Shown: positions 37,564-45,400, counted from the stretch's first letter. The stretch: DNA of 64,000 nt from Candidatus Heimdallarchaeum aukensis (GCA_021513695.1 CP084166.1:1312001-1376000), one strand, 5' to 3'. Made by a program: numbers and translations. The notes: generated by a model not told the origin, from the letters alone.

Positions 37564-40541
37564 TATTTTCGCACCTTTGTTTCTATCAGAACATTATGAT
37601 TAAAATCCTCATTTAATTTCACATCTTCAATTCCAGGACTGATTAAAATAAACTGAGGGACAATCAATCTATTTTGTTTTGCAAGAAGGTAAACAGAATA
37701 AGCTACCGAGAAGGCATAAGCTCTGTTTTTTTTATCTAACTTTTGAGTAAATTCATCAATTACATGTAAAGGAGAATGACTAATTAGATGTAAAGAGAGA
37801 ATAATAGCTTGAGCAATAAGTGTTTTTTCACCACCGGACAGTTGTCGATAATTTAAGTTTTTATTTTTGGTTTTTGCTGAAATAATCAAGCTAGCTTCTT
37901 TTTCGTTTTTATAATTAGTAATTGAGATAGAGATTTCTTCAAATACTTCACTTAACAAATTTTTGAGAGAACCATTCAAGTGATCTACAATCTTTTGTAA
38001 GGCACTTGTCCATTGATCTAATCTTTTTTCTATATCAATTCTTAAATTCTCCAAATGTTTATTTCCTTTCTCAATTAACTCTTCAAGTTTTTCTACTCTA
38101 ATTCGTTGAGAATTAATTGTTTCTGTGCTTATATTTGTTTGAATTTGGATATACGACAGTTGCCCTTTTATCTCATGAACCTCTGAAGCAATAAGCTCCC
38201 GTTCATCTCTTATTGTATCAGGACGATCACCTATTTCTTCAATCTGTTTTTTGAGTTCATCGATAGTTTCTTGAAGACTTGGAAGTTCTGCATTCAATTT
38301 GTTAAGAGTTGTAAGTAAATTCTTTTTATTTCTTCTATATTCTTGTATCTCGTTCTCTAAATTATCCAACTGATTGCGTGTTGTAAAATGAGCTTTAGAT
38401 AACTTGTCTATCTTTTCCAGAAGAGAATTAAGTTTAGTATCGTATTCATTTAATTCTTCTTGAATTTTTTCAATTAATTCCTCTTCTTCTCTAATTTCTT
38501 CTTCTAATTTTTCTTTTTCCATAAATAAATTTGTTAACTCGGTGGATACATCTGATTTTCTAGCAAATAAAAATAAGTCATTATCTATTTCTCTTTTTTT
38601 AGTTAACAGCTCCCCCCTTTTTGAATTAAGTGAAAATTTCTCTCTAATCAACTGCTCTTTTCTAGCTTCTATTTTGGATATTTTCTCCCTTAAAATTTCT
38701 GTAGATTTATAAGATTTTAAATCACTACCAAGCTTTACTCCTAAAACAGGAGGAGGGTTAGAAAAAGCTTCTCTTGAAAGGTAATAACTTTTACAATCAC
38801 TTGTTAAAATATTTGATTTATATTGTTTGGCATAATCAGTGAGAAGATTTGCGCCAATTGTTGAATCAGCTATAATCGTCTTCCTGAACTTTTTGAGATA
38901 CTCTAATACTTGATAAGGAGCATCAATTAGATTAACTGCATAGTCAATTATTCCTGTTTTTTTACCACTAATTTCTAACTTTCTTTTATAATAGTCAGGT
39001 TTTGGTCCTTCTTGCTCCAAAACTCTTCCCACAGTTAGTTTAATTGTTCTATTTTGCGTTATCCTAATTTGGTCAAAGATTTCTTTTGCTTTTTCATATG
39101 CTTCATAACTTATAGCTACAAAATCAAATAACGAATAACTTATAGCTGTTTTTATTGCTTTTTCATATTTTTCAAATCCTTCTTTTATTGATACAACTTG
39201 ATAAATAGGACCTATAATTTCATTGGAATATTTTGATTGATCAACCTTATCTCTAAACAGTTTACAATCATCTAATCTTCGTCGTTCCTCTTGCTTTAAG
39301 TTACCTAAAAAAAATGAACGTTCATCTATTATATTTTGAGTTCTTTCTTTTTCTTTTTCTAATGTTTGAATGATATTGTTTATTTCACTAATTCGTGTAT
39401 CAACATCTTCAATCTCAGTCTTTATTTTATTAAGTTGATCTTGAAGTTGTTGTTTAGTTTTAAGACCTTCTTCACTTGTAAATAATTCTAATTTTTTCTC
39501 TCTTTTCTCAATTTCAAAAATCCTATCATATTTGCTTTGGACCAATCTCCTTTTTTCTTCTAACATTCCTTTTTTATAGGTTGATTCAGACCTTAGAGAA
39601 TTAATCGATTTATTTAATTGTTCCTCTTCTTCCTTTATTTTATTAAATTGAATTAGAATAGAGTCCTTTTCTTTTTGTAACTTCATCTCTTTCTCTTGGT
39701 AGGACTTAAATTTATTATTGACTTTCTCTGTTTCTTTTAAATGATTTTGATACACTCGCTCTGCTTCTTCAAAGTCATACCATGTCAATTCTCTTGTAAC
39801 CACTTCGAGTCTTTGAATCAAATTATTTTTCTTTGTAATTAAGTCATAATCTTTTTCCATTTGTTGAAGCTTACTTCTTTCCTTTTCTAGTTGCATAACT
39901 AGAGGAGAATGTTCTCGTTGCATTTGATTTAACTTTTTCTTTGATTCAAAATATGATTGATAGATTTCATTTAGGCCTGTAGCAACAAGTAAAGTTTCTA
40001 GTTTTTTATGTGGAGAACCTTCAGCAAAAGCGTTTAAATATCCTTCTTCTGTGAAATTTAACATCGTATCTTCAAATATTCCTATTTGTTTCATGAGTGC
40101 TTGGATTTGTCTCTTTGTTACTATTCTTGAGCTTCCATCCAATGCCTTTATTTTCCTTACAGATTGATTTTTTTTAATTTCAAGCTCCACAATAAAAGAA
40201 TCCCTATTATTTACAAAAAGTTCAATATCTGGATCAGAAGATTGAAAAGGTCTCCTTTCACCCAACAAAGGGTTTGAAATGAAAAGTTGAATAACGGCAG
40301 AATCTCCAAAAGAACCAATTAATTCTTCTTTCTTACCGAGAGCTACTCTTGTGGGTGTATGCCCAATTACTAAAATTAAAGCTTCTAAAATTTGGCTTTT
40401 CCCGCTCCCATTAGCACCAGAAATGACAATTAACGGTTTTTCCATTAAATCTAATTCAGTATACTTATGCATTTTGAAATTTTTAATTACCAGTTTGTTG
40501 AAAACATACTTATTAGAACTTTCTGAATCAATAATTGTCAT
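37563..40541 (-). CDS. smc: compact SMC-family ATPase (992 aa) with hinge domain
   Basis: Walker A ISGANGSGKSQILEALILVIG; hinge-like IIGPIYQVVSIKEGFEKYEKAIKTAISYSLFDFVAISYEAYEKAKE; signature LSGGEKTLIAQAIILSLH; Walker B/D-loop VIDEFTQKLD; H-loop position reads ILISP (no His). Confidence 0.8.
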   Translation of the reverse strand: MTIIDSESSNKYVFNKLVIKNFKMHKYTELDLMEKPLIVISGANGSGKSQILEALILVIGHTPTRVALGKKEELIGSFGDSAVIQLFISNPLLGERRPFQSSDPDIELFVNNRDSFIVELEIKKNQSVRKIKALDGSSRIVTKRQIQALMKQIGIFEDTMLNFTEEGYLNAFAEGSPHKKLETLLVATGLNEIYQSYFESKKKLNQMQREHSPLVMQLEKERSKLQQMEKDYDLITKKNNLIQRLEVVTRELTWYDFEEAERVYQNHLKETEKVNNKFKSYQEKEMKLQKEKDSILIQFNKIKEEEEQLNKSINSLRSESTYKKGMLEEKRRLVQSKYDRIFEIEKREKKLELFTSEEGLKTKQQLQDQLNKIKTEIEDVDTRISEINNIIQTLEKEKERTQNIIDERSFFLGNLKQEERRRLDDCKLFRDKVDQSKYSNEIIGPIYQVVSIKEGFEKYEKAIKTAISYSLFDFVAISYEAYEKAKEIFDQIRITQNRTIKLTVGRVLEQEGPKPDYYKRKLEISGKKTGIIDYAVNLIDAPYQVLEYLKKFRKTIIADSTIGANLLTDYAKQYKSNILTSDCKSYYLSREAFSNPPPVLGVKLGSDLKSYKSTEILREKISKIEARKEQLIREKFSLNSKRGELLTKKREIDNDLFLFARKSDVSTELTNLFMEKEKLEEEIREEEELIEKIQEELNEYDTKLNSLLEKIDKLSKAHFTTRNQLDNLENEIQEYRRNKKNLLTTLNKLNAELPSLQETIDELKKQIEEIGDRPDTIRDERELIASEVHEIKGQLSYIQIQTNISTETINSQRIRVEKLEELIEKGNKHLENLRIDIEKRLDQWTSALQKIVDHLNGSLKNLLSEVFEEISISITNYKNEKEASLIISAKTKNKNLNYRQLSGGEKTLIAQAIILSLHLISHSPLHVIDEFTQKLDKKNRAYAFSVAYSVYLLAKQNRLIVPQFILISPGIEDVKLNEDFNHNVLIETKVRK

Positions 40542-43279: not shown

Positions 43280-45400
43280 AGTGGTATAATAGTAATATAG
43301 GTTATGCTATATAAACAATTCAATTTTCTCAAAAAATTATAAAAAATTTAGAAAATCTAACAATAAAAAAAGAAAAAAAGCTAAAATTTTAGAATTTAAA
43401 TTTTAAACTTCTTTTTGATAGTGATTATAGTAGCAACAACTAGGATTGAACTTAGAGAGACATATACTAGATCAAGTGATCCTATTCTTCGTGTTTTGTC
43501 TTGTCCACCAGTGTAAATGTCTGCTCCAGCACTTGAACCAGTTGAGGTAGATTCACCATAATCTTCCCATGTATCTGCTTCTTGTGTTGTACCATCCATG
43601 TTCAATAGTACTGCAGAGGTTTCTCCTCCGCCACCATTTTCACCTAGTTCATTTTCAAATCTACTGTCATAAATAACTTGAGCTCCAGGTAAGAAACATC
43701 CATTACTGGTGAGGAACATCCAATGCATGGTAATCGTTACAGTTTCATCAGGAGCAAGTGTTATACCTTCAAATTTTATTAATCCCATTCCTAAATAAGT
43801 TGTATTTGAAGTGGTACCTTCAGTTGTAACTTGGAACATTAATTCAAGTTCAGAAACATTGTAGTATTGAATGACAGTGATATGTGTTTCTGATTCACCA
43901 ATGTTGGTAATAACAAGTTCTACTTCCAACTCCCAAGGAGCGTTTTCAGGAATAATGATATCAACATTTGTAACTATATCAAGTATTGGTTGTGGGAATG
44001 CTGGTTCCATTGCAGCTTCTTTAGGTAGCAATAAAGCCCAAGCCATGTTTGAAATAACTATTTCATGAGCTTCAGCTGCTCCTTCGAAGTAACCTACTTC
44101 ATGAGTGAATGGGTTAACTACTTCTGCAGGACCTTGTCCTTCATCACTGATGAATTCTACAACAGCATAAACAGGGTGGATGCCTAAGAAAGTGTTTGCT
44201 TCAACTTCTACTTCGAATGTAACTTTTTCTCCAACAGCAACAGTACCTATTTCCTCTGTGTAGAATAGATCAGGATTTACTATTTGCCAAGTTCTATCCA
44301 TAGCTCCATGGAATAGATAGAGTTTCACATTTGTAGCATCAATGTTTCCTGTATTTTCAATATATCCAGTGATTGTAACATTATCTCCGACTTGGTAAGC
44401 TAGTTGATCTAACTCTACGTATGTGTTAAGTACAGCTTCATCGTCTGCAATCTGGAAGTTTATTCCATTACTGAATCCGAAGTACTCAAATCCTTCAGGA
44501 TCGTTATACTTGAATCTTGCTCCAGCAGAAATCCAGATATCTTCAGCATAGTCATAGAAACTGATGGGACGACCATAGGCGATTTGTCCAGCCCAATCAG
44601 AGAAACCTAGAATAACTCTCATAAGCTCATAGAAATCATGTAATTCTGTTGTTAATCCTGCTGCTTTTGTTCCATCTCCATTGTCAATTGGATGTATGTA
44701 CATCGAACCTAAAACCCAATTTTCATTAGGAATGTTTTCTAAAGCCCAACTAACTTGAGTCCAACTGTCAGGGTCTAAATTCTCTATTGTTGTCTCAAGA
44801 TAATATTGAGTAACTATTTCTGTTCCAACAGTGACATTTACTGGAACAATCTCAAAGTCCATTCCATTAAAGTCAAAAATTGTTTGGTTTTGATATAGTA
44901 AGTTGAACAGGTCTTTTGCTGCATTATCAATTCCATTTTTTAATTTATCCTTATAGTCTTCAAAAAGTGCATCCCAATCACCATTGTAGTCAGATATGGA
45001 TATATTTGCTAGGAATTGAGTTGCTCTGTTTACCAATATGTTGCTTAATCCTTTAGACGAATTAAGTTTTACTTCAGTACTAACAGTATAAGATAAACTA
45101 CCATATTGAATGGTTGTTGTTTCTGTTTTGACTGTTGCTTCAGTGATAGTTGGATCAATATCAACTAAGGAACCGTTATCATAAACATACCAACCTTCCA
45201 GTACCATCATTGTCTGGTTGTAGTTTTGGTATTCTTCTCCATCAACAGTAATTATTATACTAATATCTACAGGAATGTATTCGCTTTCATTGACGGTTAC
45301 ATCATCTCTCAATCTAAATATCGATGGAAGGTGACTGTAGAATTTCATGAAATCGCGACCTAGTGGATAGCTTATTGTAATGTTCTTTGCAGGTTCAGTT
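42664..45400. repeat. tandem direct repeat, copy 2 (2737 bp)
   Basis: see copy 1. Confidence 0.9.

Follow-up and report, generated by a model that had tools for sequence, protein, structure and literature searches.

We analysed a 64,000-nucleotide stretch of the chromosome of Candidatus (Ca.) Heimdallarchaeum aukensis strain PM71 (GCA_021513695.1, CP084166.1:1312001-1376000; hereafter the window), in which a unit of 2.7 kb is found twice in direct succession. The unit covers the 5' part of a gene encoding an ATPase of the SMC superfamily (the SMC-like gene) and the 3' part of the adjacent surface-protein gene, and the origin of its second copy is the subject of this work. The proteins encoded here match exactly the GenBank entries UJG41951-UJG41957 of Ca. 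H. aukensis (3,081,793-bp record), their best protein matches belong to Ca. Heimdallarchaeaceae, and all the genes involved are on the minus strand.

Base-by-base comparison showed that window positions 39924-42663 are repeated at 42662-45400 with no substitution and a single indel. The offset between the copies is 2738 for positions 39924-40633 and 2737 for positions 40628-42663. Copy 1 (39924-42663, period 2738, 2740 nt including a shared TT) contains codons 1-206 of the SMC-like gene, the 117 nt that separate the two genes and the 667 3'-terminal codons of the surface-protein gene, and copy 2 (42662-45400) is 2739 nt long. The copies lie head to tail, in direct orientation and with no spacer, which is the arrangement of a tandem duplication. 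They differ only in a poly-T tract located after the stop codon of the surface gene, which reads A8 (T8 on the coding strand) at 40627-40634 in copy 1 and A7 at 43365-43371 in copy 2. The initial annotation had placed the repeat at 39926-42663 and 42664-45400, which is the same event counted without the TT, and had described this single homopolymer difference; exact comparison confirmed both. This unit is the sole repeat of at least 60 nt within the 64-kb window, and an exact repeat of 2.7 kb cannot be due to chance.

The four open reading frames (ORFs) that had been delineated at this locus, of 992, 214, 1015 and 650 aa, were all recovered with unchanged coordinates. The intact SMC-like gene (37563-40541, minus strand) encodes a protein of 992 aa (UJG41952.1), of which residues 15-942 match Pfam SMC_N. 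The intact surface glycoprotein gene (43396-46443, minus strand) encodes a protein of 1015 aa (UJG41955.1) whose orthologues, of 1008-1048 aa, are found beside the SMC-like gene in relatives. This protein exhibits a signal-peptide-like N-terminus, weak CARDB/Ig-like matches, 13 N-x-S/T sequons and, just before the sequence KKKFKI, a transmembrane helix at the C-terminus, features from which it can reasonably be taken for a surface-anchored glycoprotein. The two other ORFs are incomplete. The chimeric ORF at 42635-43279 (minus strand; UJG41954.1, annotated as 'ATP-binding protein') comprises residues 1-206 of the SMC-like protein followed by eight out-of-frame residues, LNLQRTLQ, so that the 214-aa product carries the unique C-terminal peptide ...KKLNQLNLQRTLQ. 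It retains the Walker A motif GANGSGKS but does not contain the C-terminal half of the head and its motifs. The 5'-truncated copy of the surface gene (40659-42663, minus strand) contains codons 349-1015, the duplicated part beginning inside codon 348. The ORF annotated within it (40659-42611, 650 aa, UJG41953.1, hypothetical protein) starts at the internal Met366, and it has neither a signal peptide nor a promoter of its own.

The native intergenic region (40542-40658, minus strand), 117 nt long, lies upstream of the intact SMC-like gene and presents poly-T terminator-like tracts after the surface-gene stop codon. It contains an archaeal TATA-like box, TTTATATA, at 40577-40570. The box precedes the ATG of the SMC-like gene by about 30 nt and is invariant in five related sequences; it is probably the gene's own promoter, judging from position and conservation. 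A scan for sigma-70 promoters and hairpin terminators gave no enrichment, but such a scan is not applicable to archaea, and the conserved TATA-like box was used instead for this reason. In the duplicated intergenic region (43280-43395, minus strand), the box recurs at 43315-43308, ahead of the 214-aa fragment. Since the conserved box was duplicated, expression of this putative head fragment is plausible. Scans of the window for tRNA genes and Rfam families found nothing. After the duplication, the intact surface gene retains its upstream region, and the intact SMC-like gene retains 2.1 kb of unchanged upstream sequence.

At the new junction (42662-42663), internal surface-gene sequence (equivalent to that ending at 45400) abuts the end of codon 206 of the SMC-like gene (equivalent to that starting at 39924). 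The junction sequence is GCAGGTTCAGTTGATTTAACTT, read as ...CAGTT|GATT..., with one clean TT. The repeat is bounded by mismatches on both sides (T at 39923 versus G at 42661; C at 45401 versus G at 42664), and the homology at the junction is thus the TT alone (39924-25 = 42662-63 = 45399-400). The breakpoints share no homology above chance, the longest common direct or inverted words measuring 8 nt, where random pairs of window segments give a mean of 7.5 nt. The microhomology limited to TT, which had been proposed for this junction, is therefore borne out by both the exact comparison and the word search. A duplication mediated by a transposon or insertion sequence was considered and rejected: no transposase, integrase, inverted repeats or target-site duplication was found, and the unit consists only of partial neighbouring genes. 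The structure is best explained by a single illegitimate join at TT, made through template switching or through unequal end-joining between sister chromosomes, which would have linked the interior of surface-gene codon 348 to the end of SMC-like gene codon 206. We infer this mechanism from the junction alone. Each breakpoint falls within one of two neighbouring genes read in the same direction, so that each gene survives in one intact copy with its native upstream region. What the duplication adds is a repeat of the intergenic region with its putative promoter, placed before a 214-aa head fragment bearing only Walker A, and a promoterless 3' fragment of the surface gene that has no signal peptide.

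A repeat of this kind may also be produced by the assembly. The closed genome of strain PM71, obtained from an enrichment culture, was published by Wu et al. 2022 (PMC8813620). It was assembled from Illumina PE150 paired-end reads with metaSPAdes (k up to 99); LRScaf was then applied twice to scaffold the contigs on Nanopore reads, and pilon was used for polishing at 346x (PMC8813620). The DNA in the Nanopore libraries had undergone multiple displacement amplification (MDA), and part of it was also amplified by the polymerase chain reaction (PCR), a strategy adopted where data sets contain few or short reads. LRScaf represents a contig by one node, employed a single time, and fuses contigs whose estimated gap is negative (PMC6902338). 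The main text of the genome paper does not mention the duplication (PMC8813620). This hybrid pipeline is prone to false duplications and could have produced one here, which makes a pure assembly or scaffolding artefact, in which a single genomic copy was doubled by concatenation of overlapping contig ends, a serious alternative. The identity of the copies save for one homopolymer length is also what such an artefact would give, and assemblies of related metagenomes fragment in this region. Nevertheless, no scar of concatenation is found at the join: there are no N's, and the single clean TT differs from the doubled overlap TTTT expected from plain concatenation of graph edges. We also searched the window for the published primers for the end-joining region and the ~2.9-Mb gap, in order to see whether the point of circularisation coincides with the duplication, and none matched at up to 3 mismatches.

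An independent assembly of the same reads is available in Logan, a k=31 assembly of every public run in which singleton k-mers are dropped, the graph is simplified by Minia3 and each 31-mer is used once (PMC12424806). For run SRR15988954 of BioProject PRJNA721962, contigs were reached through the proteins encoded just outside the unit, and a third look-up was made for the unit itself. Contig SRR15988954_34 is 100% identical to window positions 26868-39953, and contig SRR15988954_5926 is 100% identical to positions 45371-57600. The ends of these flanking contigs, 39953 (39923+30) and 45371 (45401-30), are located exactly k-1 bases inside the unit. A separate unit contig, encoding a partial surface protein of 667 aa, was predicted from this pattern first and then found: SRR15988954_67928, with a length of 2740 nt, reproduces 39924-42663 without any difference and carries T8. 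Each flanking contig shares exactly k-1 = 30 nt with this unit contig. A second predecessor must then exist for the unit's first 31-mer, and a second successor for its last one, because the contigs would otherwise have merged. Moreover, the flanking contigs reach into the unit instead of stopping at its edge, which points to an extra copy or junction and not to a deletion variant. These features indicate that the read graph branches exactly at both boundaries of the unit and that the junction existed in the DNA that was sequenced. The unitig containing the junction itself is expected to cover 42634-42691, ~58 nt, which is below the Logan reporting limit of 150 nt.

The artefact predicts that a single copy lacking the junction would give one unbranched k=31 path. 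The opposite was observed in SRR15988954, with breaks at 39923+30 and 45401-30 and a separate contig of 2740 nt. In the sister species Ca. H. endolithica PR6, used as a control, the Logan contigs of SRR15988961 and SRR15988960 are unbroken across the equivalents of both boundaries, and one of them (L019) holds the entire surface and SMC-like genes. Exact look-ups with the full 992-aa and 1015-aa proteins found no record, which agrees with the interruption of both genes in the one read assembly containing this strain. The junction 22-mer had no match in the metagenome contigs of the Joint Genome Institute (JGI), a search that is uninformative here as those contigs are from other strains.

The organisation of the locus in relatives gives the ancestral state. 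The genome of PR6, assembled from long reads with Canu (CP084167.1), contains one copy. Four relatives (L004-L007) present the single-copy order GH57, GalT, surface gene and SMC-like gene, and in relatives at 68-86% nucleotide identity this single-copy order continues with three small genes after the SMC-like gene. All the relatives that span the locus are single-copy. The closest one (L001, JGI 3300033150, 95%) crosses the left boundary unbroken, and its contig ends inside the surface gene. The fragmentation counted above in favour of an artefact does not coincide with the ends of the repeat: the contig ends in relatives fall at the equivalents of 40820 (L001), 41908 (L002) and 43281, and none is found at a boundary of the unit. 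Variation of the surface gene between strains is their most likely cause. Taken together with the breaks in the PM71 reads and the unbroken PR6 control, these observations make an assembly or scaffolding artefact very unlikely.

Additionally, several independent metagenome assemblies of relatives fragment in or at the edges of the surface gene at varied positions, and L003 is a 3.5-kb contig carrying the surface gene alone. This suggests that the gene is hypervariable at strain level, a property unrelated to the boundaries of the duplication.

The junction could be real and the deposited structure nevertheless misstated. The duplication, a longer array or an excised 2.7-kb circle may be present in only part of the enrichment population, and the 'exactly two copies' of the record could result from joining a contig made of the left flank and the unit with another made of the unit and the right flank. 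Single use of nodes and merging of negative-gap contigs by LRScaf are compatible with such an outcome, as is the amplified Nanopore DNA, prepared by an approach meant for few or short reads. The A7/A8 difference could likewise be a population polymorphism put arbitrarily on one copy. Tandem duplications are unstable and heterogeneous within populations, which also counts for this explanation. On the other side, the extra edges survived the removal of errors and variants in both metaSPAdes and Minia3, which suggests that the junction is not rare, and the unit lacks any gene for replication or recombination by which a circle could be maintained. We regard a misstated structure as rather unlikely.

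Therefore, the pattern of breaks in the Logan contigs, the PR6 control, the junction reduced to TT and the single-copy state of the relatives together support a genuine, very recent, head-to-tail chromosomal tandem duplication of 2,738 bp in PM71, as deposited, and we consider this reading likely. The initial annotation had hesitated between a recent tandem duplication by illegitimate recombination and an assembly artefact, and the former is favoured by these data. Several points weigh against it. The Logan graph reveals extra edges at both ends of the unit but not their destinations, and gives a topology without stoichiometry, which also suits a misstated structure. Scaffolded short-read contigs combined with short, amplified Nanopore reads cannot reliably count the copies of a 2.7-kb repeat, and 'exactly two copies in all cells' is unproven given that the Nanopore DNA was amplified by MDA and PCR. 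Finally, the copies differ in nothing but the length of a homopolymer, a typical error of consensus sequences.

The absence of substitutions over 2.7 kb indicates that the tandem duplication is very young. The T8 form is common to copy 1, the Logan unit contig and L001, and is for this reason considered ancestral, the T7 of copy 2 being either a derived first mutation or an error of consensus or polishing. Short reads cannot distinguish the copies, so the assignment of T7 to one of them is not to be trusted. Homologous recombination between the 2.7-kb copies would remove the duplication, which is therefore expected to be unstable. It is probably of recent date and became more frequent in the course of the enrichment.

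As no complete gene was duplicated, a dosage benefit is unlikely, and the duplication is most likely neutral or slightly deleterious. A duplication selected in the enrichment for its function, in which the promoter copy would express the head fragment or the truncated surface protein and so alter the SMC-like complex or the cell surface, was also weighed. The TATA-like box and the start codon were duplicated intact, and the variant was frequent enough to be assembled, two observations in its favour. However, no complete gene is amplified, the head fragment is an out-of-frame fusion with eight junk residues, the surface fragment has no signal peptide, the duplication is absent from every relative examined and nothing sets it apart from a neutral hitch-hiker. 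Such selection is accordingly a highly improbable explanation. There is an equally slim chance that the duplication was selected because the additional promoter expresses a Walker-A-only head fragment of an Asgard SMC5/6-like ATPase (or the truncated surface protein) and that the fragment interferes with or regulates the complex; if this were so, a dominant-negative allele would have arisen naturally in the archaea most closely related to eukaryotes.

Spontaneous tandem duplications in bacteria whose junctions have short or no homology are RecA-independent and mediated by microhomology. The duplication in PM71 resembles them in its head-to-tail order, its one new junction with 2 nt of microhomology and its intact flanking genes, as well as in the identity of its copies, which implies a recent origin and expected instability. 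It differs from them in its host, an uncultured Asgard archaeon known from an enrichment metagenome, and in that the unit contains no complete gene, so that the dosage benefit for which such duplications are usually selected is inapplicable. With the false duplications of hybrid or scaffolded assemblies it shares the near-perfect tandem copy, the combination of short-read contigs with a long-read scaffolder and a difference restricted to a homopolymer. Unlike them, it shows branches of an independent read graph at both boundaries, a unit that forms its own contig and no concatenation scar.

Structural variants of this type are well known, and the duplication adds one more example; by itself it opens no new biological question. 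Its consequences concern first the annotation: UJG41954.1 (214 aa) and UJG41953.1 (650 aa) are by-products of the duplication, and not independent genes, paralogues or novel proteins. Counting them would inflate the number of paralogues in analyses of gene content or gene duplication, and the 214-aa fragment already has its own UniRef entry. This matters to the users and curators of a widely used reference, which is among the few closed Asgard genomes. If the preferred reading is right, microhomology-mediated tandem duplication occurs in Heimdallarchaeia. The case is also a worked example of how an assembly junction can be tested without handling the reads, through the end positions of independent de Bruijn contigs of the same run.

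The nature of the SMC-like gene itself requires qualification. The label 'SMC' given in the initial annotation stands for the superfamily, as the 992-aa protein presents a split ABC head and a long coiled coil, with GANGSGKS at residues 42-49 and matches to heads in the PDB at residues 887-948. It does not stand for a canonical SMC, since the scores are far below the cut-offs of the canonical NCBIfam models (119 bits for TIGR02168, cut-off 567; 84 bits for TIGR02169, cut-off 729). The SMC hinge PF06470 is not reported for this protein and gives only weak matches in its orthologues, which are 990-996 aa long. Its best PDB sequence matches include Smc3 heads and the arm/hinge region of Smc6 (E about 6e-10).

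The SMC-like gene heads a four-gene operon conserved in Heimdallarchaeaceae. It is followed in all the loci of this family by three small genes, encoding proteins of ~231-272, 189-211 and 144-152 aa (window positions 35857-37563); orthologous operons were compared in L002, L004, L006 and L008-L013. A second SMC-kleisin-kite operon, related to SMC5/6, has been reported in Asgard and TACK archaea (bioRxiv 10.1101/2024.01.07.573240), and the operon in the window may correspond to it. The resemblance to the SMC5/6-related operon (bioRxiv 10.1101/2024.01.07.573240; Yoshinaga & Inagaki, PMC8665677) lies in a non-canonical protein of the SMC superfamily, with Smc6 and Smc3 among its best PDB sequence matches, heading a conserved operon with three small genes. 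In contrast, the kleisin/kite matches of the small genes are sub-threshold only: the 231-aa family matches Nse1 with E 0.17, and the 192-aa family matches winged-helix proteins with E 0.08-0.3. The 231-aa and 192-aa families showed no relationship to each other by profile-profile comparison. A further difference is that the operon in the window encodes a RING-like zinc-finger protein, which the available part of that preprint (10.1101/2024.01.07.573240) does not mention for archaeal operons.

A defence function was also considered for the SMC-like operon and rejected. PADLOC returned only generic SMC/ABC-head similarity to LmuB and JetC with unconvincing partners, together with a weak CARF-domain match in the 192-aa protein (E 0.002). 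A housekeeping role is more likely, because the synteny is conserved across the family.

The third small gene (35857-36300) encodes the zinc-finger protein, of 147 aa, with an invariant pattern C-x2-C...C-x2-C-x4-C-x2-C...C...H and, at the C-terminus, the highly conserved motif RFREEQWRKFGxVLVKRKDGKF. The members found of this family, in 24 clusters, all come from Heimdallarchaeaceae. Weak matches to RING-type domains were obtained both by sequence (RNF4 RING, E 0.014) and by Foldseek (probability 0.97, E 0.036), and a match to a chain of the yeast Smc5/6 complex was observed as well (E 0.36). The AlphaFold model of this protein is of moderate confidence, with a mean predicted local distance difference test (pLDDT) value of 59, and the RING-like fold matches are hence a lead only. 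The RING domain of Nse1 is described as a eukaryotic innovation (bioRxiv 10.1101/2024.01.07.573240). Given this, a putative RING-like subunit in an Asgard SMC5/6-like operon would be notable if true.

In the closest relative, L001, the 192-aa gene (contig positions 3955-4490, corresponding to 36297-36875 of the window) carries a 34-bp deletion by which the invariant LFRELTTIL is lost and the frame is shifted. This copy is either a pseudogene or an assembly error.

Two observations were made on neighbouring genes. In PR6 (CP084167.1; L008 positions 4333-6104), the galT orthologue is split into pieces of 156 aa and 148 aa by an insertion of 1.77 kb, which exhibits imperfect terminal inverted repeats of 27 nt and contains a 504-aa TnpB/OrfB_IS605, Cas12f-like ORF. 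The insertion site corresponds to about 47159-47173 of the window, where galT (46632-47600) is intact, and the PR6 Logan contigs start inside this insertion, about 30 nt before the end of the element. Further along, positions 58258-60228 encode a protein of 656 aa that GenBank names 'E3 ubiquitin protein ligase' (UJG41966.1) and that is conserved in close relatives.

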